Notes: generated by a model from the sequence alone, not told the origin. A stretch of DNA of 64,000 nucleotides from GCF_988243305.1 NZ_OZ547136.1; one strand, 5' to 3'; positions 7,289 through 38,940 are shown, numbered from the stretch's first letter. Translations and numbers: made by a program.

Positions 7289-7968
7289 GCTTGCGCTCCT
7301 TGCGTTGGGTTGCGACGTTCTTCGAAGTTAAGCCAGACGCGCAAAATGTTGGCTCCGACAAATTTAAACACCAGGATGACTGCTAAAGGTACGATTACGG
7401 ACGTGCCCAGAAAGGCAAACACCGCGACGCCGGAAGAGAAGTAGTTGGTGATGATGGCGCTACCACTGGTTTGATATGCGGCGAAAATCACTTTATCGCG
7501 TTCGGTAATTTCACCTTCCTGCGCCAGCTCTTTGGTCATACCGGCGGCGGCATCAGTGTTTTGCAGGTTAGCGATCAGCGCCAGCGAGCAGATCCCTGGA
7601 ATACCCAACAACGGTTTTAGCACAGGTGTCATTAACTGCTGCGCGGCGCGTAATCCACCAAGACCATCGGTAATTGAAATAATCCCCAGAGAGAGAATGA
7701 CTGACGGTGCCAGCTCCAGCGCAAAGAGAAAGCCATCTTTAGCCCCCGCGCCACCCGCGCCGCGAAACGAGGTGGTGGCTCCGTTCGCACCAGGCAGTTG
7801 CCCAAACGATCCGTTCAGCACGGAAAAATCAAAAACGCGCCACCAACTGTCTGTCCCGGAAAAAACACCGGAAAAAAAGATTATGGTGAGAAAAAAAGCC
7901 AGATACCCTTTAATGCCCACTTTTTCTGTCGCCAGCTCCCCGGCTACAGCATCCCCTTGTTGTGTCAT
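7285..7968 (-). CDS. yjiH: Inner-membrane protein YjiH
   Basis: The track ORF is 231 aa. The internal start MTQQGDAVAGE gives 227 aa, as I recall for K-12. The protein is polytopic and hydrophobic. Confidence 0.85.
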   Translation of the reverse strand: MTQQGDAVAGELATEKVGIKGYLAFFLTIIFFSGVFSGTDSWWRVFDFSVLNGSFGQLPGANGATTSFRGAGGAGAKDGFLFALELAPSVILSLGIISITDGLGGLRAAQQLMTPVLKPLLGIPGICSLALIANLQNTDAAAGMTKELAQEGEITERDKVIFAAYQTSGSAIITNYFSSGVAVFAFLGTSVIVPLAVILVFKFVGANILRVWLNFEERRNPTQGAQA

Positions 7969-8217
7969 AACAATCCCCATTGTTTTTTTGTGTTTGTGTG
8001 TTGCTTGAGCCAGGAAAATTCCTGGAGCTGAAAAACCTTATCAGCCATGTGGGTATGGGGAAAATGCAAGTATGTTTCTGGCTATGCGTTTTTTGCATAG
8101 CGGAAAAATTACGCTGTGGGGAAAAGGTTCTGCGCAGGATTGAGTTGCAGTAAATTCATAAACCCAGTGACAATGACATCAGTAAATTAAAGCAGAAAAT
8201 CCAGGGACGAAAACGAG

Positions 8218-8802
8218 ATGGCAAAGTACAACGAAAAAGAGCTGGCGGATACGAGCAAGTTTTTAAGTTTTGTCCTCCGACACAAACCGGAGGCGATTGG
8301 TATCGTACTGGACCGTGAAGGATGGGCGGATATCGATAAGCTCATACTTTGTGCCCAAAAATCGGGCAAGCGGTTAACCCGTGCATTGCTGGATACCGTT
8401 GTCGCCACCAGCGATAAAAAGCGTTTTAGTTATTCCAGTGATGGTAGGTGCATTCGCGCGGTTCAGGGGCATTCGACTTCGCAGGTCGCCATTTCCTTTG
8501 CCGAAAAAACACCGCCACAGTTTCTTTACCACGGTACGGCAAGCCGTTTCCTTGACGAGATAAAAAAACAGGGGCTGATTGCAGGGGTGCGTCACTACGT
8601 ACATCTCTCTGCTGATGAAGCAACGGCACGCAAAGTGGGAGCAAGACACGGATCGCCGGTTATTTTAACCGTCAAAGCACAGGAAATGGCGAAACGAGGC
8701 CTCCCTTTCTGGCAAGCGGAAAACGGGGTCTGGCTGACATCAACGGTTGCTGTTGAGTTTCTTGAGTGGCCGTTCATGCCGGCTGGGGTACAAAAACAAT
8801 AA
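8218..8802 (+). CDS. kptA: RNA 2'-phosphotransferase (Tpt1/KptA)
   Basis: 194-aa ORF with Tpt1 motifs ([25 protein letters not shown]). It appears about 10 aa longer at the C-terminus than I recall for K-12 (184 aa). Confidence 0.9.
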
Positions 8803-8825
8803 ATTCAATATATTGCAGGGGTTAT

Positions 8826-8856
8826 ATAGGCCTGATAAGCGCAGCGCATCAGGTAA
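8826..8856. repeat. REP element
   Basis: The sequence ggcctgataagcgcagcgcatcaggtaatg is a REP-type palindrome downstream of kptA. Confidence 0.7.
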
Positions 8857-8922
8857 TGTAGCGTTTGTTATCAGTCGGAAAGGATACCCTCGCACAAGGG
8901 TATCCTTAATAACCTACTAAAA

Positions 8923-24521: not shown

Positions 24522-25479
24522 ATGACAAACTTCACAACCAGCACGCCGCATGACGCATTATTTAAATCCTTTCTCACGCACCCTGACACCGCGCGGGATT
24601 TTATGGAGATCCACTTACCCAAAGATTTACGTGAACTGTGCGATCTCGACAGCTTAAAACTGGAATCCGCAAGCTTCGTCGATGAAAAATTGCGGGCGCT
24701 ACACTCCGATATTCTGTGGTCGGTAAAGACCCGTGAAGGTGATGGTTATATTTACGTAGTGATTGAACATCAGAGCCGCGAGGATATCCATATGGCCTTT
24801 CGCCTGATGCGATATTCCATGGCGGTGATGCAGCGCCATATCGAGCATGATAAACGCCGGCCGCTACCGCTGGTCATCCCGATGCTGTTTTATCACGGTA
24901 GCCGTAGTCCTTATCCCTGGTCTTTGTGCTGGCTGGACGAATTTGCCGACCCGACTACTGCACGGAAGCTTTATACTGCAGCGTTCCCGCTGGTGGATGT
25001 CACTGTCGTGCCGGACGACGAGATTGTGCAGCACCGCAAAGTCGCCCTGTTGGAGTTGATCCAAAAGCATATTCGCCAGCGCGATCTAATGGGACTTACT
25101 TGATCAACTGGCAGTATTACTGGTTACAGGGTGCGCTAATGACAGCCAGATAACCGCGCTGTTAAATTACATTTTACTGACTGGCGATGAAGCGCGTTTT
25201 AAAGAGTTTATCAGCGAACTAACCAGTCGAATGCCACAACAAAGGGAGCGAATAATGACGATTGCAGAGCGAATTCATAATGATGGATGGCTGTTGGGAA
25301 GGGAGAGGGGGAGGAAAGAAGGGAAAGTAGAAGGGGAACGGAGCCTCCTCCGATTGTTGTTGCAGAATGGGGCCGATCCTGAATGGATACAACGATATAC
25401 CGGACTTTCGGCAGAGCAAATGCAGGCATTAGATCAGCCCTTGCCTGAAAGCAAGCGTGATCCATGGATCGAGTACTAA
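24522..25479 (+). pseudogene. rpnD: Recombination-promoting nuclease RpnD (PD-(D/E)XK, transposase_31 family), split by a frameshift
   Basis: The N-terminal 193 aa ([26 protein letters not shown]...VIEHQS) stop at 25103. The reading frame continues without a stop in another frame from ~25100 ([63 protein letters not shown]...) to 25479. The shift point is ggacttacttgatcaa, near 25092-25105. This corresponds to K-12 yjiP/yjiQ. Confidence 0.8.
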
Positions 25480-27550: not shown

Positions 27551-28264
27551 TTAGTTGAATTTAATATCAGCAATCAATTTTTTGATATAATCTTCTGGTT
27601 TCATCTTTGTTTTTTCTTTTATTTGCTGATAAGTTTCTTTCTTAATGTTGATTTCAATTGTTTTATTTTTATTGATAATGCACGCAATTGGTAATAGTAG
27701 CAATAATGTAATAATTATAATTATAAGAATTATTTTTGAATTTCCATGTGAGTCCGATTCCTTCATTTTTTGGAATATTCTTCTCATGACTGGATTAACT
27801 GCTGAAGAAAACATAATCATAATGATAAAAACAGCCAAAAAATCTAATGTATATTTTGCGTAGTAACTTTCAGTATTCATCTCAAAAAACAGCAACCACG
27901 CCAGAGCACAAAACAATGTCATGCCAAAACATATAAATGAAATAATAAAGCCAATTTGTTGCGTTCTTTTATCTAGTTCAGAGAGAAATTTCTCACCAAC
28001 TCTTTGACCTTTATAAGGTGAAATAAGTGTGTGGGCGGCATTGAAAAATACATTTGTGCAAATCAAAACAAAGAATATATTGATTGGCATAAATCCTATA
28101 AGTGTATAAAAGAAGAAGTCTTGTTGAAGATAGTACGGTAATTGATTATCAACTTCCATTAACAATGTAAATATAAAACCGAAAGAAACATAAAAAAACA
28201 AACCTTCTTCACGTAATTTTTTAATGTATTTTTTGAATTTAAAATCTTTAATCATCTTCAGCAT
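27551..28264 (-). CDS. Orphan polytopic membrane protein (about 5 TM), very AT-rich, function unknown
   Basis: - The ORF is 237 aa with a good Shine-Dalgarno (aggaa, 5 nt before the ATG).
- The N-terminus is Lys-rich (MLKMIKDFKFKKYIKKLREE).
- Hydrophobic segments include FFYVSFGFIFTLLM, FFFYTLIGFMPINIFFVLICTNVFF, IGFIISFICFGMTLFCALAWLLFF, LDFLAVFIIMIMFSSAV and IILIIIIITLLLLLPIACII.
- The C-terminal tail is charged.
- I recognise no family motif. Confidence 0.7.
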   Translation of the reverse strand: MLKMIKDFKFKKYIKKLREEGLFFYVSFGFIFTLLMEVDNQLPYYLQQDFFFYTLIGFMPINIFFVLICTNVFFNAAHTLISPYKGQRVGEKFLSELDKRTQQIGFIISFICFGMTLFCALAWLLFFEMNTESYYAKYTLDFLAVFIIMIMFSSAVNPVMRRIFQKMKESDSHGNSKIILIIIIITLLLLLPIACIINKNKTIEINIKKETYQQIKEKTKMKPEDYIKKLIADIKFN

Positions 28265-28328: not shown

Positions 28329-31300
28329 TTATGTTGGCAAAGCAATTTTCCCCGTGAGCATATCAAACATCAGATAAGCAAAGCCCTTTGCCCGAACTGG
28401 ATCGGATAAATATTGCAACATAAATTCTTGCCGAGCGTCATTACTGTCCATTACAGCATTATCAACTGCCTGGAGGAAATCACCAAGAATCGCTTGTTCT
28501 GGCGGATTGTTTTTAATTTGTGTCATAACATTTTCATTTTCAGTTATTTTGTTATACACCGAAAAAGCATTGCTGATCATATCTTTCTCGGTCAAATGGT
28601 CGCTAATGAATAATTCATTCATCCGAGAAAGCACCTGCGATAAAAATTCCTCTTTTTTATCTTTCGCTTTTGCCGTACCAATATCATTACTTGCATCCAG
28701 CGTATAGTCAGGCGTTTCTTCCTGTAAACGTAAATCTTGCTCATGGATTTTCGATAAACGATAGTGACTCATCTCTACATTACTGAGATCAATTTCATCC
28801 TCTTCCAGACGTTGCTCATGCAGCAGCGGACGCAGATGACGGGCAAACAGGCTTAGCTTTTCCAGATCTTTGTCATCGTATTCGACGATCTGCGACATAA
28901 ATTCGTAAAAGCGAACAAAGCTGCCGAGATCTTTTTTGAATATTTCCAGACGATCTTTTTCCTGCTTACAGGCTTTAAAACTGTTTTCCGCATTAGTGAT
29001 TAACACCGTATCGCCCGTTTTTTTGGTGCGCTCGAACATCTCTTTGGCGGTCAGATAAGCGTCTATCGCCATCAGATAACGCTTTTTCCAGCGTTCTACC
29101 GCCGGTTTGCATATATTACTGATCGCTGCATTCGATTTATTTTTGATGAAGAATGCCTCGCAGAACTGCTCGACTTCATGCCACTGAAAGATCTGCGTGG
29201 CGCGCAGTTTTTCAAACAGATCGAAAACCTGCTGCGGATCGCTGACATCGGTCAGTTCCGCCGTCTGGAAATAGGGCTGGAACGCGCCGAGGATCTCGTC
29301 CGGATCGTTATAAAAATCGAGAACAAAAGTGCCTGATTCCGCTTTGCCCGGATAGGTGCGATTCAGGCGGGAGAGCGTCTGCACGCACTCGACGCCGCCG
29401 AGGGCTTTATCCACGTACATCGCGCACAGTTTCGGCTGGTCAAAACCGGTCTGGAATTTATTGGCGACCAACATGACCTGATAATCATCGCTGTCGAAGG
29501 CTTTGCGCATATCCCGCCCTTTCAGGCCGGGGTTCATGTTTATTTCAGTAAATTTCTGGTTTAACAATGCCAGGCTGTTATGGTCGCCTTCCTGGAATTC
29601 AACTTCCCCGGAAAACGCCACCATCGCGCTGATTTTCTGGTAATTGTTCTCGCTAATGTATTTATCAAACGCCAGCTTGTAGCGTACAGCGGCTTTGCGT
29701 GAACTGGTGACCACCATCGCTTTAGCCTGGCCGCCAAGCAGGTGCATCACATGTTTGCGGAAGTGCTCCACAATCACCTTCACCTTCTGCGAGATATTGT
29801 GGTCGTGCAGTGTCACCCACTGGTTGAGCTTAATCTTCGCCCGTTTGCTATCGACTTCGCGGTCTTTGTCTTCCAGCTTTTGCAGCAACTGATACGCCAC
29901 TTTGTAGTTGGTGTAGTTTTTCAGCACGTCGAGGATAAAGCCTTCTTCGATTGCCTGGCGCATGGAGTAGACGTGGAAGGCCTCAGGTTTATTGGTTTTT
30001 GACGCCGGTTCATCGGGACGTGGACGGCGACCAAAAAGTTCGAGGGTTTTGGATTTTGGCGTGGCGGTAAAGGCGTAGTAGTTCAGGTTACTGCTGCCTT
30101 TCCGGGCGGCAATGGTCGCATCCAGAATATCTTCTGACGACAGCACCACGTCATTATCCATTTCTTCGCTCATCAGCACTTCTTTAAGCTGACGGGCGGT
30201 GGAACCGCTCTGCGAGGAGTGCGCTTCGTCGGCAATCACCGCATATTTACGCTGCTTCAGGCTGACGCTGTTTTCGATTGCTTTCAGTACGAATGGGAAC
30301 GTCTGGATGGTGACAATAATGATCGGCTGCGAGTTTTCCAGCGCGCTGGCCAGCTTTTCCGATTTGGAGCCGTCGCCCTCTTTGTTATTGATGCGCCCGA
30401 CCACGCCGTCGGCGTGTTCGAACTGCCAGATGGTGTCCTGAAGCTGGTCGTCCAGCACCGTGCGGTCCGTCACCACGATAATGGAGTGGAACTGTTTTTC
30501 CCCGTTCACGTCGTACAGACGAGAAAGCTGGTGGGCGGTCCAGGCAATGGAGTTCGATTTACCGGAACCGGCGCTGTGCTGGATCAGGTATTTATGGCCG
30601 GTTCCTTCAATCGTCGCGGCCTCCAGCAGTTTGTTGACCACATCCCACTGATGATAACGCGGGAAAATCAGGCTCTCTTTCTTCGCTTTCAGCCCGTTCC
30701 ACTCCTCTTTTTCTTCAATATGCAAATGGACAAAACTGGCGAGGATTTTTAATAAGTTGTCCGGCAGCAGCACTTCATTCCACAGATAATCTGTGGCGTA
30801 GCGGTGGGTATCTTCGGGGATCTCGTTGCCTGCGCCGCCGTCTTTGGTGCCTTTGTTAAACGGCAGGAAGAAGGTGCTGTCACCCGCGAGTTTGGTGGTC
30901 ATAAAGACGTCATACTGGCTGACGGCAAAATGCACCAGCGCGCCGCGCTTAAAGGTCAGCAGCGGTTCCGGTTTATTGGTGGCGGGATCTTTCGGCAGGC
31001 GGGTCTTTTTGTACTGCGCAATGGCGTTCTGCACCGCCTGTTTGAATTCGGATTTCAGCTCCAGCGTGGCAATTGGCAGGCCGTTGATAAACAGCACCAG
31101 GTCGATGCGCCATTTTTTGGCTTTCACGCCCGTTTCTGCAAAGACGCTATTTGAGGCATACGGGCTGTAGACCAGTTCCGGCACGATACGGCAGATATTC
31201 TGCTGATAGCGCGCCAGCGTTTCCGGGTTGAGATTATGTTCCGGTTTAAACTGACACAGCGAAAAACGGGCATTGCGGATTTTCAGTCCGTGGCGAAGTA

Positions 31301-31592
31301 CGCCGAGCGTACCCCAGGTGCGCGACTGGATGTCGGTGGCGTTGCTGTCGGCTTTTTTTAACTGCGCAACCAGCGCGTCGAGGAAATGGCGCTCGGTGTC
31401 GTTGGGGTAAACGCGGGCGAATTTCTCCCACTCCTGTGGTTGGGTGATTTGTACAAAGAGCAGGGCGTCTTGTGCGTATAGCGCACGTTCACGATCGTAG
31501 CCGTCGCCTTTGCCGACAATCCAGCCTTTTGCTGCCATCTGCGCGATGATGTCGTTTTGTAGGTTGACCTCTTTTGCAATGTCGTTGCTCAT
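28329..31592 (-). CDS. hsdR: Type I restriction enzyme R subunit (HsdR)
   Basis: 1087-aa ORF. The N-terminal PD-(D/E)XK nuclease motif is WRIDLVLFINGLPIATLELK. The SF2 helicase motif I is QHSAGSGKSNSIAW and the DEAH box is VIADEAHSSQ. The start overlaps the hsdS stop by 4 nt. Confidence 0.93.
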   Translation of the reverse strand: MSNDIAKEVNLQNDIIAQMAAKGWIVGKGDGYDRERALYAQDALLFVQITQPQEWEKFARVYPNDTERHFLDALVAQLKKADSNATDIQSRTWGTLGVLRHGLKIRNARFSLCQFKPEHNLNPETLARYQQNICRIVPELVYSPYASNSVFAETGVKAKKWRIDLVLFINGLPIATLELKSEFKQAVQNAIAQYKKTRLPKDPATNKPEPLLTFKRGALVHFAVSQYDVFMTTKLAGDSTFFLPFNKGTKDGGAGNEIPEDTHRYATDYLWNEVLLPDNLLKILASFVHLHIEEKEEWNGLKAKKESLIFPRYHQWDVVNKLLEAATIEGTGHKYLIQHSAGSGKSNSIAWTAHQLSRLYDVNGEKQFHSIIVVTDRTVLDDQLQDTIWQFEHADGVVGRINNKEGDGSKSEKLASALENSQPIIIVTIQTFPFVLKAIENSVSLKQRKYAVIADEAHSSQSGSTARQLKEVLMSEEMDNDVVLSSEDILDATIAARKGSSNLNYYAFTATPKSKTLELFGRRPRPDEPASKTNKPEAFHVYSMRQAIEEGFILDVLKNYTNYKVAYQLLQKLEDKDREVDSKRAKIKLNQWVTLHDHNISQKVKVIVEHFRKHVMHLLGGQAKAMVVTSSRKAAVRYKLAFDKYISENNYQKISAMVAFSGEVEFQEGDHNSLALLNQKFTEINMNPGLKGRDMRKAFDSDDYQVMLVANKFQTGFDQPKLCAMYVDKALGGVECVQTLSRLNRTYPGKAESGTFVLDFYNDPDEILGAFQPYFQTAELTDVSDPQQVFDLFEKLRATQIFQWHEVEQFCEAFFIKNKSNAAISNICKPAVERWKKRYLMAIDAYLTAKEMFERTKKTGDTVLITNAENSFKACKQEKDRLEIFKKDLGSFVRFYEFMSQIVEYDDKDLEKLSLFARHLRPLLHEQRLEEDEIDLSNVEMSHYRLSKIHEQDLRLQEETPDYTLDASNDIGTAKAKDKKEEFLSQVLSRMNELFISDHLTEKDMISNAFSVYNKITENENVMTQIKNNPPEQAILGDFLQAVDNAVMDSNDARQEFMLQYLSDPVRAKGFAYLMFDMLTGKIALPT

Positions 31593-32992
31593 GCGCTGGC
31601 CTCCGTGGGTGTTTCTGCTTTGGGGATGGGGGCGGTCCAGTTGCGTAGGTCGATTTTTCCGGTGACGGCAGCGGAGATAAGGGCGGTGCGGCGTTCCTGG
31701 ATTAGCATTATTGCTTGATTGGTTTTAAATATTATGAGATCAATTTGTGCGCATTTTTCATTCAAGGCGTTGACGATTGATTGTGCTTCACCCAATGGGG
31801 GAAATATAAACTTGGTTGTTTTAAAGTCACCTAATGAAACTCTTTTTCTTGTTCCCTCAATACTAATGTTATTAATGGTTTGTCGCCCAAAATTTGAGTT
31901 CAATAGATATGCTATGAAATGTGCATTGAAGGTTTTTTTATTAACTCTTACTCTCATAACATCTTGCGTTATGACAGCATCTGGTTCATTTTTAGGATAA
32001 ACGCACGCTTCTCCTGGGGGATCTCCGACTTTTGAAAAAATCACATCATTTGAGGATAATTTACATATTTCAAGCTGTTGGGCTTTTTGATGAGTAACAT
32101 ATACAGTACTTTTTCTGTTATAACCTGTCGCTTTTATATCTCGAATGTATACGACAGGTACCCCTTCTTCTTTCAATTCACTTGCTAGTAAATCACTTCC
32201 AAATGGCCCATTTACGAAGCATCCTTTAGTTTCATCACCAGTATTGGCTAATTTACTCTTAAACCAGTGGGAGGGTGCTTCGCCTAATCCTGTTAAACCA
32301 GAATCTTTCATCGGCACATCAGGATTTAGCCCTTTGGTCACCGCATGGCTAATCACTGCCTGACGTTTTTCTTTAAGTAGTTCAATGAGTTGTTGTTGTT
32401 TCTCGATCAGGTCATCGATTTTTGCTGTTTCATGATCAAGGAAAAGTGCAATCTTAGAAGATTCATCATTACGAGGTTTTGGGCATTGTATATCGCCTAA
32501 AAGTTCAAGGTTTAAACCGTCTCGTAAATCACCGCCAGCCATGTTACGTATATTCTGATAATTAGAAATGAGCCACCAAAATATATAGCGAGATTGATTC
32601 TTTTTATACAATACAATGGCCGCCATGGATTGGTTACAAGTGGTATTAATACCAAGTTGTGCAACCATACCTTTGGTTTTTCCCTGCCCAGCTAAAGCGA
32701 CAACAAGTGCCCCTTTTGGTATCCACTTGGCACTACTATTTTCAAGTGCAGCGTTAGATATATATGTGGATGGCTCGACTATATAACCTTGATTTACTGC
32801 TCCAGAACTAATCCAGGGAACTGTACCATTCTCCCAATAATCAATAACATTTTTGGAGGGAGTTCCTCCTGCAAAAATATTGGATAGCCACCTCAGCTTA
32901 GTTTTTTTCCAGTTTAGTGGTAATTCATTACACCACTCCATCCCAGAATCCCTATACTCCGGATACGCCTGATATTTATTTAACCCCGCCAT
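31589..32992 (-). CDS. hsdS: Type I R-M specificity subunit (HsdS), two target-recognition domains
   Basis: 467-aa ORF. Two variable TRDs are separated by a conserved helical spacer (IALFLDHETAKIDDLIEKQQQLIELLKEKRQAVISHAVTKGL), with a matching C-terminal helix (LIQERRTALISAAVTGKIDLRNW). The ATG shares one base with the hsdM stop (TGATG). Confidence 0.92.
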   Translation of the reverse strand: MAGLNKYQAYPEYRDSGMEWCNELPLNWKKTKLRWLSNIFAGGTPSKNVIDYWENGTVPWISSGAVNQGYIVEPSTYISNAALENSSAKWIPKGALVVALAGQGKTKGMVAQLGINTTCNQSMAAIVLYKKNQSRYIFWWLISNYQNIRNMAGGDLRDGLNLELLGDIQCPKPRNDESSKIALFLDHETAKIDDLIEKQQQLIELLKEKRQAVISHAVTKGLNPDVPMKDSGLTGLGEAPSHWFKSKLANTGDETKGCFVNGPFGSDLLASELKEEGVPVVYIRDIKATGYNRKSTVYVTHQKAQQLEICKLSSNDVIFSKVGDPPGEACVYPKNEPDAVITQDVMRVRVNKKTFNAHFIAYLLNSNFGRQTINNISIEGTRKRVSLGDFKTTKFIFPPLGEAQSIVNALNEKCAQIDLIIFKTNQAIMLIQERRTALISAAVTGKIDLRNWTAPIPKAETPTEASA

Positions 32993-35346
32993 CAGGAATG
33001 TACCTCCTGCAACAGTTTCATAATCTCAGCGCTTACCGCATCCAAATCAGCATCAATCTCCTCCAACGGTCGCGGCGGTGTATAAACATAAAAATGACGA
33101 TTAAACGGAATTTCATACCCCACAATCCCGATATCCCCATCTTTCGCATCGCGTTTATCGGCATTGATCCACGCATCCGCAACATGCGGCAATACTTCCG
33201 CTTTGAAGTAATCCTCGATCAACTCGTTGGTAGATACCGCCGGATTTAACGGCACATTCTCGTTATCACGCAGGTCGCCATCCGATTCAAACTCCACAAC
33301 CTTTCCGTGGTACTCAAACGCGCCGTACAGCGGTTGGGGCGCTTCTTTCAGAACCTTGCTGATTACCGGCTCGGCGTCCGGGTTTTTGCGGGTGATAGCA
33401 TCGATAAACTGCTTGTTCTCTTTCGCATCCAGCTTCACGCCTGCGGTTCTGAGCGCCTCTTTCAGCGTCAACTGGAACTGATTAAAGTCATTGCTAACAG
33501 TCTCTTTGCCACCCGCCAGCATCCTCATCGCTGCCTGAATACGCCGCGCTTTTTCCATTAACCCGCGCTGGGCCAGCCATAATTTGCTGTCGAGCAGATC
33601 TTTAATTTGCTTCTCTTTCAGCTCGCTAAAATCGGCTTTAAGAATGGCGCGGGCTTCACTTTCTACCGCTGTTAAGTCGCCGTAATTACCGTCCTGCCAC
33701 TGGAAAGCAAAGGCGTCATACAGTTGCGCCATCGGCGCGTTAAACGGCTTCGGCGCAAAGCGCAATGTGGCAATGGCGTCATCACTTATCTGAGCCGACA
33801 GGCGTAACGGGCGCTCAACGGTGATGCGACGATAGCCAAACTCGGTGCTGTGAAAGACTTTGCTGGCAAAGGTTTTTGCCGCCTCGGTTTTGGTTGTTGC
33901 GGGCTGGCGTCCCCGGCTGGATTTTTGTTCGGGTGCTTTCTCCAGGCCTAACGCCGCAAGCGTAGTGGTGGCAACGGGTTCGAAATCGCCAAACGTGCGG
34001 GTGATTAAACCAATATCCTCCTCCCCGAGAATATTACGTTTTGATCCCAGCGATTTACGCATCTTTCCGCACAGGTTGCTGCCGTCGATTAGCTGGACTT
34101 TACCTTTGCGTTCTGGCGCTTTTTTGTTAGACAGCACCCAAACATAGGTAGCGATACCGGTGTTGTAAAACATATCGGTGGGCAGGGCGATAATGCCTTC
34201 CAGCAAATCCGCTTCCAGAATGTAGCGGCGGATCTCGCTTTCACCGCTGCCTGCGCCGCCGGTGAATAACGGCGAACCATTAAGAATGATGCCGATCCGT
34301 CCGCCACCGCTTTTGGCATCGCGCATTTTGCTGATCAGATGCAGCAGAAACAGCAACGAACCGTCGGAGACTCGGGGCAGGCCGGGGCCAAAGCGACCAT
34401 CAGCACCTTTGAGTTTGTGCTCGTTGTTGATGTCGGTTTCTATCTTTTTCCAGTCCACGCCGAAAGGTGGATTAGAGAGCATGTAATCGAATTTTTCTGC
34501 GGGGAGCTGATCGTTGGAAAGGGTGTTGCCGAGTTTGATAAGGCTGACATCCTGGCCCTTAATCAGCATGTCGGCTTTGCAGATGGCGTAGGATTCCGGG
34601 TTTAACTCCTGACCAAACGCGCGCATCACGGCATTGGGGTTTTGTTTGTGGACGTACTCCATGCCGGAGGAGAGAAAGCCGCCGGTTCCCGCCGTTGGGT
34701 CGTAAATGGTGCGAATGATACCGTCTTTATTGAGTGCATCATCATCATCGAAAAACACCAGCGAGGTGGTCAGATTGACGATATCACGCGGGGTAAAGTG
34801 CTCCCCGGCGGTTTCGTTAGAACTCTCGGCAAAACGTCGGATCAGCTCCTCAAATACCAGCCCCATATCGTGGTTGGTGACGTGCTCCGGGTATAAATCT
34901 GCTTTAGCGAATATTTGCACCACTTTGAACAGTAAGTTTGCATCCGCCAGCTGTCCGACAAACTCGCTGAACTTGAAGTGTTCGAAAATTTCGCGGGCAT
35001 CCGAAGAGAACGACTGGATGTAGTTTTCCAGGTTGTCCTGTATGCCATTTTGCCCCATTTTGCTGAGATCCATCGCTGAGGCATTGAAGAACGTGAGGCC
35101 ATTAGTCGCCCGCAGGATCATTTTCTCCTGGGCTTCCTCCGGCAGTTTCATGGCTTTTACTTTTTGCGCCTCGGTAATGACCGCGTCTTTCGTTGTTTCG
35201 AGTACGCATTCCAGACGACGCAAAAGGGTAAAAGGAAGAATAATTCGTCCATATTGTGATTGTTTAAAATCGCCGCGTAACAGGTCGGCGACAGACCACA
35301 GGAAGGCTGCAATCTGGCTGAAATTAGTTGATGACATAAAAAGCAT
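32992..35346 (-). CDS. hsdM: Type I R-M N6-adenine methyltransferase subunit (HsdM), unusually long (784 aa)
   Basis: The HsdM N-terminal domain reads [38 protein letters not shown]. The AdoMet motif is [12 protein letters not shown] and the catalytic motif IV is LSNPPFG. About 250-300 extra residues lie between the MTase core and a conserved-looking C-terminal tail ([33 protein letters not shown]). Confidence 0.9.
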
Positions 35347-35621
35347 TCCTTGCCCTGAAAAAGAGGGGGATATTCAATGTGAAGTGAATGCTTTGTTATA
35401 TCAAACTATTGCTGTGATGATCAAAAACACGATCATTTTCAATACGTTATAAATATGAATTGGAAATATTAATTGTTCTAATGAATGCGTGTTGAGGTGT
35501 TTCTTAATATATTTTGATTTATCCTGGAATGGTATTTTTGCAGAAACAAAGACGCTAACTTTTATTTTTTATTCGCAGCATAATGACGCCGTTTGCCAGT
35601 GCAATTTGACAGGAGTCATTC

Positions 35622-37721
35622 ATGAAAGCCACCGAAGCCCGATTACTCGATTTTCTAAAACGCTCTCAGCAATTCGTTATTCCCATTTATCAGCGTACTT
35701 ATTCATGGTCAGAGGAACAGTGCCGCCAGCTCTGGGACGATGTAATACGTGCCGGGCAGCGTGATGATATCCCGGCGCATTTTATCGGCTCGGTGGTGTA
35801 TATCGAACAGGGCCTATATCAGGTTTCGGGGATCTCTCCCTTACTGGTGATTGACGGTCAGCAACGCCTGACAACGGCGATGTTATTGCTGGAAGCGTTG
35901 TCCAGACACCTTGGCGATGACGAGGTGATGGATGGTTTCTCCGCCATGAAATTACGAAACTATTATCTGCTCAATCCGTATGAATCGGGCGAGCGTGGAT
36001 TTAAGTTACTGCTTACGCAAACGGACAGAGAGAGCCTGCTGGCATTGATTAGACAAAAACCGCTGGCAGAAAATTGCTCTCTACGCGTGAAAGAGAATTT
36101 TGAGTTTTTCCATGAGCAAATAGGCAAACTCCACGGCAATTTCACCGCGTTATGTCAGGGCCTTTCCAAACTGCTGATTGTGGATGTCGCCTTGAATCGC
36201 GGTCAGGATAATCCGCAACTAATCTTTGAAAGCATGAACTCAACAGGAAAAGCGCTGAGTCAGGCGGATCTAGTACGCAACTATGTTCTGATGGGGCTGG
36301 AGCCAGAACATCAAAGCCAACTGTACGACGATTACTGGCGGCCCATGGAGCTGGCGTTTGGTCAGAAGGGATACACTGACTATTTCGACAGTTTTATGCG
36401 TAATTACCTGACGGTAAAAACAGGTGAGATTCCGCGAATTGGTGATGTCTATGAAGCCTTTAAACGCTATGCGCGAAAACCTGGCGTAATAGATAGCGGG
36501 ATGGAGGCGCTGGTTGCGGATATTCGTACCTATGCGGATTATTTTTGTGCGATGGCGCTGGATAGCGAAAAAGACAAAATATTAAAGATGGCGTTTCAGG
36601 ATCTACGTGAGCTGAAAGTCGATGCCGCCTGGCCGTTCCTGTTGGTGCTTTATCACGACTATAAACAGGGAATTCTTTCTGCCGCGGATTTTTTAAGTGC
36701 CACGCGTTTAATTGAGTCGTATATCTTCCGGCGCGCAGTCTGTGCCATTCCCACTAACTCATTTACTAAAACCTTCGCCACGTTTTACAAAGTGCTGGAT
36801 AAAGAGCGTTATCTGGAGAGCATTGCGGCACATTTGCTGGAACTGCCTTCCTACCGTCGTTTCCCGGATGATGATGAATTTCAACGTGAACTGAAAACTC
36901 GCGACCTCTACAACTTCCGTAATCGCAGCTATTGGCTACGTAGATTTGAAAACCACGATCGTAAAGAACGGGCCTATGTTGACACTTATACGATTGAACA
37001 TATCATGCCGCAGAACCCTAATTTATCGGCGAAGTGGCGCGATGACCTTGGTCCGGAATGGAAGCGAATCCATAAAAAGTGGCTCCATACGTTGGGTAAT
37101 TTAACGTTAACTGGCTATAACTCAAGCTACAGCGACCGTCCATTTGCGAAGAAGCGAGATATAAAAGGTGGCTTTAAGGAAAGTCCATTACGCCTGAACA
37201 CGGGGTTAGGGCAATGTGAAATATGGGATCGTGCAGCGATACAAAAGAGAGCGGAACGTCTGTCCGAGCTGGCAATAGACGTCTGGGCGATCCCCAAACT
37301 TTCGGAAGACGTGTTGGCTCGTTATCGCACCGTCGTTGAACGAGGAACGGGATATGTCCTTGCTGATTTCCCGCAACTTGAAGAAGGTACGCACATCCGC
37401 GTACTTTTTGACAGCCTTTCTGATGCCGTTATGACGCTGGACGCTGGGGTTACGCGAGAAATATTGAAGCTCTATGTTGCCTTCAAAGCGGAGACGAATT
37501 TTGTTGATGTGGTGCCGCAAAAAAGTCGCTTACGTTTATCACTAAATATGCCATTCCATGAACTGGTTGACCCAAAATGTATGGCTAAAGATGTCACAGA
37601 TATAGGCCGTTGGGGCAATGGCGATGTTGAAATAGGTTTCAGCGATCTTTCTGAGCTTCCTTATGTGATGGGATTAATTCGTCAGGCATTTGAAAAGCAG
37701 ATGGATAACGCGATGGTTTAA
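35622..37721 (+). CDS. GmrSD/BrxU/SspE-like type IV restriction-type protein (DUF262 ParB-like NTPase + DUF1524 His-Me nuclease + extra C-terminal domain)
   Basis: - The ORF is 699 aa with a caggag Shine-Dalgarno.
- The DUF262 signatures are FVIPIYQRTYSWSEEQCRQLWDD and VIDGQQRLTT.
- The DUF1524 signatures are YTIEHIMPQNP and HTLGNLTLTGYNSSYSDRPF.
- About 150 aa of C-terminal extension is unassigned.
- The gene is divergent from hsdM. Confidence 0.85.
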   Translation: MKATEARLLDFLKRSQQFVIPIYQRTYSWSEEQCRQLWDDVIRAGQRDDIPAHFIGSVVYIEQGLYQVSGISPLLVIDGQQRLTTAMLLLEALSRHLGDDEVMDGFSAMKLRNYYLLNPYESGERGFKLLLTQTDRESLLALIRQKPLAENCSLRVKENFEFFHEQIGKLHGNFTALCQGLSKLLIVDVALNRGQDNPQLIFESMNSTGKALSQADLVRNYVLMGLEPEHQSQLYDDYWRPMELAFGQKGYTDYFDSFMRNYLTVKTGEIPRIGDVYEAFKRYARKPGVIDSGMEALVADIRTYADYFCAMALDSEKDKILKMAFQDLRELKVDAAWPFLLVLYHDYKQGILSAADFLSATRLIESYIFRRAVCAIPTNSFTKTFATFYKVLDKERYLESIAAHLLELPSYRRFPDDDEFQRELKTRDLYNFRNRSYWLRRFENHDRKERAYVDTYTIEHIMPQNPNLSAKWRDDLGPEWKRIHKKWLHTLGNLTLTGYNSSYSDRPFAKKRDIKGGFKESPLRLNTGLGQCEIWDRAAIQKRAERLSELAIDVWAIPKLSEDVLARYRTVVERGTGYVLADFPQLEEGTHIRVLFDSLSDAVMTLDAGVTREILKLYVAFKAETNFVDVVPQKSRLRLSLNMPFHELVDPKCMAKDVTDIGRWGNGDVEIGFSDLSELPYVMGLIRQAFEKQMDNAMV

Positions 37722-37764: not shown

Positions 37765-38499
37765 ATGACAACCAAACTACTGGACCTGAGCTGGAATGCA
37801 AATGCCATCCCGGCGATGCAAATTGTCGGTACGCGCGCGGCCTTGTTTACCTTCAAAACGCATATGGCAGGGTTTGTCTGGGATGCCGCGCAACTGGAAA
37901 ATAACCCCTATACCTTTGTTGAAGTTAAAACGCTGCTCGATGGCGTCACCGTTGGCGGGCATAAGGTCAGTGATACTGAGCAGGTGTTGAACCTGGCAGA
38001 TAGCGCAAAAAAACTGATTGAACTTGTGCAATCCGGGCGTTTCGATCTTGATAAGAAAACGTTCACGTTGCTTAACGGCATTATTGCGCGTAATGAGGCG
38101 CTGGAGTGGGGCGTTTTTCGCGGCGAAGGTGATGAGTTACATTACAATGCGCGCGTTCACCTCGGCGAGTTGGGCACCCATTTCCCACCAGCCACAGAAG
38201 CAGGTGCACCTGAACTGAATCGAATATTCGCCGCAGGTGTGGCACAAATAAAAGAGATGCCACCGTTCGAAGGGGCGCTGGCAATGTTTTTATTTGGTGC
38301 TTATTTTCAGTTTTTCTTTGATGGCAACAAGCGTACCAGTCGCCATATGATGAACGGCTGGTTAATGCGCCACGGTTACAATCCCATTAGTGTACCCGCA
38401 GCTCGTGCGCTGGAGTTCAACAGCAAAATGGTGCGCTTTTATCACAGCAAAGATGCCAGTGAAATGATGGCATTTTTGGTGGATTGCTATCAGGTTTGA
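37765..38499 (+). CDS. Fic/Doc (Fido) superfamily protein with a degenerate, Doc-like core motif
   Basis: - The ORF is 244 aa with an aagga Shine-Dalgarno, 43 nt after the upstream GmrSD-like gene.
- A Fic-type N-terminal helix region is present (LENNPYTFVEVKTLLDGVTVGGHKVSDTEQVLNLADSAKKL).
- The core motif is QFFFDGNKRTSR (aa 182-193, nt 38308-38343), versus the canonical Fic HxFx(D/E)GNGRxxR and the Doc HxFx(D/N)(A/G)NKR. Confidence 0.75.
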   Translation: MTTKLLDLSWNANAIPAMQIVGTRAALFTFKTHMAGFVWDAAQLENNPYTFVEVKTLLDGVTVGGHKVSDTEQVLNLADSAKKLIELVQSGRFDLDKKTFTLLNGIIARNEALEWGVFRGEGDELHYNARVHLGELGTHFPPATEAGAPELNRIFAAGVAQIKEMPPFEGALAMFLFGAYFQFFFDGNKRTSRHMMNGWLMRHGYNPISVPAARALEFNSKMVRFYHSKDASEMMAFLVDCYQV

Positions 38500-38564: not shown

Positions 38565-38651
38565 CTAAAACGTGATGCTATTTCCAACATTCGAATCATC
38601 AGTGCACGAAAAGCAGATCGTAAAGAGAGGAATCGCTATGAGCATGGTTAA
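38565..38651 (+). pseudogene. brnT: 5'-truncated remnant of a BrnT (DUF497) toxin gene
   Basis: Read by hand in the frame of nt 38592. It encodes ...LKRDAISNIRIISARKADRKERNRYEHG and stops at TAA 38649-38651. IRIISARKA..KER..YE is the conserved BrnT C-terminus. Only about 30 of roughly 90 codons remain. The remnant overlaps the brnA-like start by 14 nt, as in intact brnTA operons. Confidence 0.65.
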
Positions 38652-38940
38652 ACATAAACGAGGGACCTCCTCTACACTCGATGTGCAGCATGAGGCCGAA
38701 TTGAAGGCGCTGGCGAATAAATTCGACGAAGAGATTGATTACAGCGATATCCCACCTTCCAGCGATGAGCAATGGTCTAACGCAGAACGCGGTAAGTTTT
38801 ATCGGCCATTGAAAACCCAGGCTTCGGTGCGTATTGATGCTGATGTGATGGAATGGCTGAAGCGACCTGGTAAAGGCTATCAAACTCGCCTGAACGCAAT
38901 TTTACGTGAAGCGATGCTGCGCGATCAGAACAAAAAATAA
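38638..38940 (+). CDS. brnA: BrnA-like antitoxin (DUF4415/RHH family), apparently orphaned
   Basis: 100 aa from MSMVKHKRG, with an agagagg Shine-Dalgarno; the track start at 38572 was rejected. The motif IDYSDIPPSSDEQWSNAERGKFYRPLKTQASVRIDADVMEWLKRPGKGYQTRLNAILREAM is typical of BrnA/DUF4415. Confidence 0.75.
   Translation: MSMVKHKRGTSSTLDVQHEAELKALANKFDEEIDYSDIPPSSDEQWSNAERGKFYRPLKTQASVRIDADVMEWLKRPGKGYQTRLNAILREAMLRDQNKK

Follow-up and report, generated by a model that had tools for sequence, protein, structure and literature searches.

An operon for a Type I restriction-modification system occupies the minus strand at positions 28329-35346 of the 64,000-nucleotide stretch of DNA analysed here (hereafter, the window). 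In a preliminary description its HsdM was taken for an unusual methylase subunit lengthened by an inserted domain, which raises the question of whether the operon encodes a departure from the classical enzymes or an ordinary member of a Type I family. The analysis strongly favors the second answer: this is an ordinary, intact Type I operon from a widespread family that normally has the M-S-R gene order, coupled junctions in enteric bacteria and an HsdM of ~780 aa, the extra residues being the family's own module and the most likely assignment being Type IE.

Gene organization and transcription

Three open reading frames were found in the order hsdM-hsdS-hsdR, all on the minus strand, as had been described. 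The first, hsdM (32992-35346), has 784 codons when read from its first ATG at 35346. An RBS-like AAGGA is located 8 nt upstream of the second in-frame ATG at 35337, and HsdM homologues from E. coli in the database all have 781 aa. Because of these two observations the second ATG is probably the true start, so that the length of 784 aa given initially holds for the first ATG only and the likely product (32992-35337) has 781 aa. The hsdS gene (31589-32992) codes for a specificity subunit of 467 aa and hsdR (28329-31592) for a restriction/translocase subunit of 1087 aa.

Both junctions could be read directly from the DNA. The hsdM stop and the hsdS start have one base in common in TGATG (32990-32994, minus strand; CATCA on the plus strand), and the hsdS stop and the hsdR start have four bases in common in ATGA (31589-31592, minus strand; TCAT on the plus strand). 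Start/stop overlaps of these kinds are frequent in operons. The hsdS/hsdR overlap leaves no intergenic room for a separate hsdR promoter, and a consensus promoter scan gave no sign of one inside hsdS.

The same scan detected no promoter-like site in the hsdM upstream region. In the promoter/terminator scan promoter-like sites were fewer than in shuffled sequence, and since the shuffled sequence scored more sites, the scan is uninformative on transcription. The AT-rich intergenic stretch that separates hsdM from a divergent GmrSD-like gene (35347-35621) is the presumed site of the operon promoter, which we place upstream of hsdM; hsdM, hsdS and hsdR would then probably be transcribed as one unit. 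Without a promoter of its own for hsdR, a newly acquired copy of the operon would need post-translational control to spare the host.

Subunits of the enzyme

A Type I system is made up of three separate subunits: HsdM, a gamma-class N6-adenine methylase with an HsdM_N domain; HsdS, with two target recognition domains (TRDs) and conserved helices; and HsdR, a PD-(D/E)xK nuclease joined to an SF2 motor. Each of the three was matched by Pfam, NCBIfam and PADLOC models, and their motifs were located. In HsdM, an HsdM_N domain (34909-35313, minus strand; aa 12-146; Pfam PF12161, E 6.7e-27) is followed by the N6_Mtase catalytic domain (33973-34875, minus strand; aa 158-458; Pfam PF02384, E 7.7e-58), which aligns with the solved HsdM structures 7vru, 3lkd and 7bst. 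The AdoMet motif DPTAGTGGF (34675-34701, minus strand), the NPPFG motif (34459-34473, minus strand) and the 11-residue motif of the C-terminal tail, all three named in the preliminary description, are indeed there, at aa 216-224, 292-296 and 743-753 of the 784-aa numbering, respectively.

HsdS is matched by Pfam Methylase_S in two stretches. Its two TRDs are variable, and its conserved regions are a central one (32327-32452, minus strand) and a C-terminal one (31643-31711, minus strand). HsdR is matched by Pfam HSDR_N, SWI2_SNF2/ResIII and a T1R_D3-like domain, and by TIGR00348. It contains, all on the minus strand, a PD-(D/E)xK-type IDLV...ELK motif (31053-31106), a Walker A motif AGSGKS (30555-30572), a DEAH motif (30219-30230) and QTLSRLNR (29358-29381).

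The mechanism that we propose for these subunits is that of the classical Type I enzymes. The methylase would be an assembly of two HsdM subunits with a single HsdS; the HsdS TRDs would specify a bipartite target, and each half of that target would receive N6-methyladenine. Addition of two HsdR would convert the methylase into a translocase-nuclease driven by ATP, which would cut unmethylated DNA at a distance from the site. As the motifs are intact, the operon is expected to be active in restriction and modification.

Spread of the long HsdM

A database search returned more than 8000 HsdM homologues, and the best 120 of them are all 767-1021 aa long. Proteins of 780-787 aa with ~81% identity occur throughout Enterobacterales. 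The PADLOC MTase_I model PDLC03029 spans HsdM residues 2-780 with a score of 931 bits, and 12 of the 18 PADLOC MTase_I models listed for HsdM are more than 600 positions long. Thus, what had been regarded as an unusual HsdM with an insertion is a family-wide trait, and the assumption that HsdM always has about 500-530 aa has to be corrected. The possibility named at the outset as a refutation, a common long form that had been characterized before, is largely borne out because long HsdM is common in an already catalogued family; the exception is the C-terminal module, for which there is no domain model or structure.

In a scan with a five-sequence alignment at least 591 species genomes were found to code for the module; they come from many phyla, including Proteobacteria, Planctomycetota, Verrucomicrobiota and Gemmatimonadota. 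In every related locus where all three genes were found, M, S and R follow in this order on one strand. The TGATG hsdM/hsdS junction recurs in K. pneumoniae and other enterobacterial loci, and the ATGA hsdS/hsdR junction in the related loci L001-L005, L008-L010, L012, L013 and L022; both overlaps are found in Klebsiella and other enterics. For annotation, the operon of the window is a routine case: it adds an allele to a common Type I family, and the defence island in which it sits is well known.

Relation to named Type I families

The plasmid-borne EcoR124I (Type IC) shares the M-S-R gene order with the window's operon. Its hsdR, however, has its own promoter, whereas hsdR in the window overlaps hsdS by 4 nt. 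Both HsdM and HsdR of EcoR124I are detectably related to those encoded in the window, yet its HsdM (520 aa) lacks the module and matches over the catalytic domain only (E 2.5e-25), and the likeness between the two HsdR proteins is limited to about 65 residues (E 8e-11).

EcoKI (Type IA) of E. coli K-12 occupies the same chromosomal slot and follows the same overall enzyme logic. Its hsdM and hsdS also overlap by 1 nt and are translationally coupled, but its gene order is R-M-S, and its hsdR has a promoter to itself (PMC3510504). The preliminary description had set EcoKI apart on the same grounds, in agreement with that source and with the location of the operon between yjiA and yjiR/mdtM. EcoKI HsdM (529 aa) is without the C-terminal module and resembles the HsdM of the window over the catalytic domain only, with E 1.4e-11 over aa 157-404, and the order here is M-S-R.

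Type IE, with KpnBI of Klebsiella pneumoniae GM236 as the prototype, is the probable though not proven assignment. KpnBI, like the operon in the window, is enterobacterial, and its unusually long hsdM overlaps hsdS by 1 nt; Chin et al. reportedly gave, in NAR in 2004, 2631 coding bases for KpnBI hsdM and 1 nt for the overlap. In the homologous locus of K. pneumoniae the maximal hsdM ORF has 877 codons, i.e., 2631 coding bases, an ORF that needs an upstream TTG beside a remnant of an IS3-type transposase. The assignment rests on the length of 2631 bases reported for KpnBI hsdM, and we keep it at probable.

The Klebsiella operon has the same gene order and the same overlaps as that of the window, with 81% identity in HsdM and 84% in HsdR. 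Between the two HsdS proteins the conserved regions, central as well as C-terminal, are nearly identical while the TRDs diverge, which looks like the pattern expected of exchangeable subunits. Because the TRDs are different, the recognition sequence of the window's system should differ from that of the KpnBI-like Klebsiella operon. The latter is located next to McrBC-like genes, while the operon of the window is part of the immigration control region of E. coli. Type IE enzymes have seven bp between the two methylated adenines (Table 1, PMC12707154). For Type ID the spacing is six. Some authors define a Type I family in silico by >90% identity (PMC5399793), and the 81% HsdM identity to the Klebsiella homologue is below that cut-off, as is the whole 81-84% range, which refers to the Klebsiella operon.

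The alternative that holds up best, although we think it improbable, is that the family was never given a letter, being neither ID nor IE and present only as putative systems in REBASE-derived collections. The long-HsdM family is not named in the literature searched, the source annotation of the protein reads only "type I restriction-modification system subunit M", the names of cluster members of the HsdM homologues include no REBASE name, and Loenen et al. state in their review that further Type I families undoubtedly exist. Against this stands the Klebsiella ORF, which has exactly the 2631 bases reported for KpnBI, comes from the species of the prototype and likewise overlaps hsdS by 1 nt.

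Type ID (StySBLI, EcoR9I and KpnAI), an enteric family that is chromosomal and has been reported from the immigration control region, is a still less likely assignment. [quoted passage not shown] Among the accompanying genes the review names GmrSD, brnAT and rpn, all of which flank the operon of the window. Type IA is clearly out, the match to EcoKI HsdM (E 1e-11) being confined to the catalytic domain. The Type ID methylase, however, is probably ~540 aa long and has no close relative in the list of HsdM homologues. The methylases of S. xylosus hsdMSR systems are reported to be 50% identical to M.StySBLI (PMC10030836), and a 780-aa StySBLI HsdM with a 300-aa module is hard to reconcile with this figure. 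S. Enteritidis has a StySBLI-like system, yet the best 120 homologues (at least 80% identity) include no S. enterica subsp. enterica cluster; Salmonella is represented among them by a single subsp. salamae cluster, on 3 contigs. The length reported for KpnBI hsdM, which equals that of the Klebsiella homologue exactly, likewise speaks for Type IE and not for Type ID.

The C-terminal module of HsdM

The HsdM of the window has ~300 residues that classical HsdM subunits lack, as the preliminary description had recognized. Pfam finds no domain on aa 459-784, so that the extra length follows the catalytic domain and precedes the terminal helix. The region was originally put at aa 470-720; its position between these two elements stands, but its span is wider, about aa 459-760.

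The region begins with a basic linker (33850-33972, minus strand; aa 459-499) that is predicted to be disordered and whose core, RGRQ at 33904-33915 (minus strand), resembles an AT-hook. In the model of the C-terminal part pLDDT falls below 50 at aa 460-486. The net charge of the linker is +4, while the methylase and the segments past aa 652 are net negative. The linker is visibly conserved: related loci yielded 78 linker stretches, of which 56 have an RGRQ or RGRP core.

The structured module follows (33067-33849, minus strand; aa 500-760). A model built on 108 diverse sequences gives the C-terminal ~300 residues a confident predicted fold (pLDDT 90), whereas a full-length HsdM model from 29 close homologues reached a pLDDT of 40 and was unusable. 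The predicted parts are a beta hairpin within a 14-residue segment, a helical bundle and a small beta subdomain; a conserved segment contains LRDxENVPL, EVLPHVxDAWI and a further 11-residue stretch. The terminal helix (32995-33066, minus strand; aa 761-784) corresponds to helix 322-344 of the model. In classical HsdM subunits, as in the EcoKI and EcoR124I architecture, the C-terminal helices pack against the conserved HsdS helices, and by analogy the terminal helix of the window's HsdM presumably does the same. The whole would thus be built as a basic disordered linker with an RGRQ core, a compact helical/beta domain and a terminal helix presumably lying on HsdS.

No structural relative of the module was found among solved structures, and no sequence relative among PDB sequences, whether the region was used alone or as a five-sequence profile. 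No Pfam or NCBIfam family was found for the C-terminal region at E values up to 10. The literature search returned no relevant description of a long HsdM or of an AT-hook in HsdM. The uncatalogued part of the protein is thus the C-terminal module, which is without a Pfam or NCBIfam model or a solved relative. Detailed structural models of Type I enzymes, to our knowledge, all come from families without such a module.

Among relatives the size of the module varies by degrees, while its core, to which the terminal helix belongs, stays constant, so the module did not arise by one insertion event. In all full-length proteins checked it has the same place, after HsdM_N and N6_Mtase. Shorter matches begin or end within the module and look like fragments. 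Its identity co-varies with that of HsdR across the family. A fused mobile or accessory gene was considered and rejected, the module being internal to HsdM at a constant position, with a core that is constant while the size varies.

These properties make it quite unlikely that the region is a separately acquired accessory domain, such as a sensor or a second defence function, and that the enzyme goes beyond classical Type I. A module with no known fold relative or domain model leaves room for a new activity, and long-HsdM loci often hold other defence genes between hsdM, hsdS and hsdR. Yet searches of the module detected neither a catalytic-looking motif nor a known family, and its fixed position, the fragment-like nature of the shorter matches, the graded sizes and the tracking of HsdR all argue against acquisition as a separate unit.

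We do not think, therefore, that the family's own module brings a new enzymatic activity. We infer that it adds contacts to DNA and/or HsdR, with HsdR co-evolving. More tentatively, the module and the KSNRGRQ/P linker might form an undescribed DNA-contacting and/or HsdR-docking element that alters closure of M2S1 or recruitment of the motor, in which case the mechanism of assembly, or of restriction control, would be unlike that in EcoKI and EcoR124I. What the analysis brings out is a C-terminal domain without a catalogue entry, and with it a conserved basic linker, in a Type I family (probably Type IE) that is large and spread widely across phyla. An M2S1 or R2M2S1 structure from the long-HsdM family would bear on whether Type I enzymes clamp DNA, or dock HsdR, in a single manner or in several.

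Genomic setting and alleles in E. coli

The operon belongs to the immigration control region of E. coli, with yjiA on one side and yjiR/mdtM on the other, and is flanked by GmrSD, brnAT and rpn genes. The neighbouring rpn gene is frameshifted in the window.

Proteins 98-100% identical to those of the operon are present in many other E. coli strains. It is very unlikely that the operon is decaying, no longer restricting or reduced to methylase function: although the rpn frameshift means that the island is not wholly intact and the promoter scan located no expression signal, all three ORFs are full length with intact catalytic motifs, and the near-identical proteins of other strains likewise point to an intact system.

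At this locus the hsdM gene of the window is carried by 116 of 5426 complete E. coli genomes, 38 of which, strain C4 (NZ_CP010121) among them, have the whole hsdS in common with it. In the listed examples from the remaining hsdM-bearing genomes, only the first half of hsdS or short conserved stretches are shared. The hsdS alleles of these E. coli genomes show swapping of TRDs.

The hsdMSR operon and its junctions

Three minus-strand ORFs, hsdM (32992-35346), hsdS (31589-32992) and hsdR (28329-31592), were found exactly where the preliminary description had placed them. The coupled junctions also read as described there: the hsdM stop and the hsdS start share one base (coding strand TCC TGA TG), and hsdS and hsdR overlap by four bases (GC ATG A). 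Pfam searches revealed HsdM_N (aa 12-146) and N6_Mtase (aa 158-458) in HsdM, two Methylase_S domains in HsdS, and HSDR_N, SWI2_SNF2/ResIII and T1R_D3-like domains in HsdR. Motifs are intact, with DPTAGTGGF and NPPFG both present in HsdM, as previously noted, and a PD-(D/E)xK-type IDLV...ELK, Walker A AGSGKS, DEAH and QTLSRLNR in HsdR. No Pfam family covered HsdM aa 459-784; thus, the extra length of HsdM is real and lies, as had been proposed, between the catalytic domain and the C-terminus.

The earlier length of 784 aa holds for the ORF read from its first ATG. However, this ATG overlaps a Shine-Dalgarno-like AAGGA, while a second ATG (35337) is located 8 nt downstream of AAGGA and yields 781 aa, as in all close homologues in the databases. 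We therefore take the second ATG as the likely hsdM start.

A long HsdM is a trait of the family

The long HsdM had been interpreted as an insertion in one gene, on the assumption that HsdM has a length of about 500-530 aa. This is true only of the classical IA, IB and IC prototypes; both the length and the M-S-R coupling are ordinary for the whole family to which the window system belongs. More than 8000 HsdM homologues were retrieved from 5.8 billion proteins. Among the best 120, nearly all are 780-787 aa long, with about 81% identity or more, and they come from many different Enterobacterales (among them Salmonella salamae, Citrobacter, Klebsiella, Serratia, Yersinia, Pectobacterium, Xenorhabdus and Pantoea). 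Across 29 of these 120, conservation in the extra region equals that in the remainder of the protein. The PADLOC MTase_I model PDLC03029 matches HsdM residues 2-780 with 931 bits, and 12 of the 18 MTase_I models listed for HsdM exceed 600 positions. When the extra region alone was used as a query, 679 proteins were found among 1.84 billion cluster representatives, and all ten near-full-length matches checked carry HsdM_N and N6_Mtase with the region at the same place behind them. When one genome per species was scanned, at least 591 genomes proved to encode it, distributed over Gammaproteobacteria, Alphaproteobacteria, Desulfuromonadota, Myxococcota, Planctomycetota, Verrucomicrobiota (including Akkermansia) and Gemmatimonadota. 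The window system is a new hsdS allele and host within a known, common kind of Type I system. What remains of interest in the operon is the uncatalogued C-terminal module of HsdM, a structured region of about 300 residues, and the AT-hook-like linker that precedes it.

Two related loci, from Shewanella schlegeliana and Kistimonas asteriae, contain two HsdM-like linker regions each, with an HsdM tblastn span of nearly 6 kb, which points to a tandem pair of hsdM genes, both of this family, in each.

The C-terminal module and the linker

Structure prediction for full-length HsdM was unusable (pLDDT 40). A model of only the C-terminal 345 residues, for which 108 diverse sequences were used, reached pLDDT 90 and pTM 0.77. 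In this model, the methylase domain ends in a helix, after which the chain is disordered (pLDDT below 50 at aa 460-486). Next come a beta hairpin ([14 protein letters not shown]) and a helical bundle, then a small beta subdomain, then a helix and a strand that bear LRDxENVPL, EVLPHVxDAWI and [11 protein letters not shown], and finally a long terminal helix. The module had no structural relative in a viral structure library, no match of its sequence profile among PDB sequences and no Pfam or NCBIfam family even at E 10. In shorter relatives, whose HsdM has 655-700 aa, the hairpin, the conserved C-terminal segment, the terminal helix and part of the bundle are retained, but there is no linker, no beta subdomain and none of the first helices. 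The module therefore consists of a constant core with optional additions, which argues against a single insertion event.

The linker consensus across related loci is roughly LDKPxExKSNRGRQSxxxKxExxKTFASKIF, and, judged by its sequence, the linker is conserved far beyond the needs of a spacer. Its core, KS(N/S)RGR(Q/P), lies in the predicted-disordered stretch of HsdM in the window and in related loci L005-L071. RGRQ occurs in 49 of the 78 stretches recovered from related loci of several phyla, and the core of a canonical AT-hook, RGRP, in 7. The window linker reads SSRGRQP (aa 476-482), with the core at 33904-33915 (aa 478-481). The net charge of the linker is +4; for the methylase and for the segments beyond aa 652 it is negative. 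We interpret the linker as a probable minor-groove or partner-binding peptide. No description of this core in HsdM was found in the literature searched.

Assignment to a Type I family

The maximal hsdM ORF of the K. pneumoniae homologue, 877 codons from a TTG at 8728, comprises 2631 coding bases. KpnBI, which reportedly became the Type IE prototype for resembling no other family, is reported to have hsdM and hsdS genes of 2631 and 1344 bp, respectively, sharing one base. Since the exact length, the species and the overlap agree with KpnBI, this family is likely, though by no means certainly, Type IE. Three K. pneumoniae assemblies carry an IS3-type transposase gene whose end lies just upstream of hsdM (7947-8822 and 8728-9000 of the locus) and supplies the in-frame upstream extension that lengthens the maximal ORF to 877 codons. 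Because the extension runs into the transposase gene end, the real K. pneumoniae HsdM should be 786 aa, and an IS3-derived extension could explain an over-long published KpnBI hsdM.

The main alternative, less probable than Type IE, is Type ID, the StySBLI family; a 2025 EcoSal review gives only IA, IB and ID for the immigration control region. However, M.StySBLI was reported to be 50% identical to staphylococcal HsdMs, and S. Enteritidis has a StySBLI-like system, yet no S. enterica subsp. enterica cluster occurs among the best 120 homologues. Types IA and IC were rejected, as EcoKI and EcoR124I HsdM match over the catalytic domain only and EcoR124I HsdR over only 65 residues.

HsdS variation

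The window and K. pneumoniae operons share 81% identity in HsdM and 84% in HsdR, compared to 32% overall in HsdS, where the conserved central and C-terminal helices are almost alike and both target recognition domains (TRDs) differ. The whole hsdS is common to 38 of the 116 E. coli genomes carrying this hsdM; among the others, the examples listed match it only in TRD1, its first half, or in short conserved stretches. At the sequence level this is the textbook pattern of specificity change via TRD exchange.

Gene order and proposed mechanism

When the three proteins were compared with 84 related loci by tblastn, all loci in which M, S and R were each detected had them in this order and on the same strand. 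Three K. pneumoniae assemblies and eight other loci (E. coli M7424, six other Enterobacterales and one Moraxellaceae genome) show junction spacings equivalent to the 1-nt and 4-nt overlaps. Outside enterics the order is kept, although M and S, or S and R, are often separated by one to three additional genes. In ten non-enteric loci defence or toxin-antitoxin genes lie inside the operon (among them YhcG/DUF1016 nuclease, DUF5655 proteins, Fic, DUF6088 with AbiEii, Abi_2, GmrSD_N and SF2 helicase); GmrSD, DUF5655 and Fic also flank the E. coli operon.

By analogy with the established mechanism of EcoKI and EcoR124I, an M2S1 methylase would modify a bipartite target, and an R2M2S1 complex would translocate and then cut unmodified DNA. 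The HsdM terminal helix may pack on the conserved helices of HsdS, and one may speculate that module and linker add contacts with DNA or HsdR. Across the family, HsdR identity tracks HsdM identity, an observation compatible at least with co-evolution of the two partners.

There is nothing special about the 1-nt hsdM/hsdS overlap, which EcoKI shares (PMC3510504). In EcoKI, however, hsdR precedes hsdM and has its own promoter, whereas in the window hsdR follows hsdS and is coupled to it. The hsdS/hsdR overlap leaves no intergenic room for a separate hsdR promoter, and a promoter scan gave no evidence of an internal one. Restriction alleviation on entering a new host would thus have to be post-translational; we know of no study of it in this HsdM family.

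Chromosomal setting

The best E. coli match is strain M7424 (98.9% DNA identity), annotated in the order yjiA, BrnA antitoxin, Fic, GmrSD-domain protein, hsdM, hsdS, hsdR, hypothetical, yjiS, yjiR, Rpn-family gene, mdtM. This bears out the earlier placement of the operon in the slot of EcoKI in K-12, the immigration control region. This hsdM is present in 116 of 5426 complete E. coli genomes, always chromosomal and in single copy.

Upstream of hsdM, on the plus strand, are genes for a 699-aa GmrSD-type Type IV restriction protein with C-terminal DUF5655 (35622-37721), a Fic-family protein (37765-38499) and a BrnA-like antitoxin (38572-38940). The GmrSD and Fic pair also adjoins the same hsdM family in Enterobacteriaceae bacterium G50. 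A 237-aa ORF (27551-28264, minus strand) follows hsdR after 65 nt, in DNA with about 31% G+C; it is hydrophobic and multi-pass as judged by eye and had no convincing family match. It occurs in the M7424 locus, is absent from the remaining related loci, and may represent a passenger or accessory gene transcribed together with hsdMSR. Compared with the intact 318-aa version in M7424, an Rpn-family recombination-promoting nuclease gene (24522-25479, plus strand) has one additional base at about 25099, which breaks it into ORFs of 193 and 82 aa; it is probably a pseudogene in this strain.
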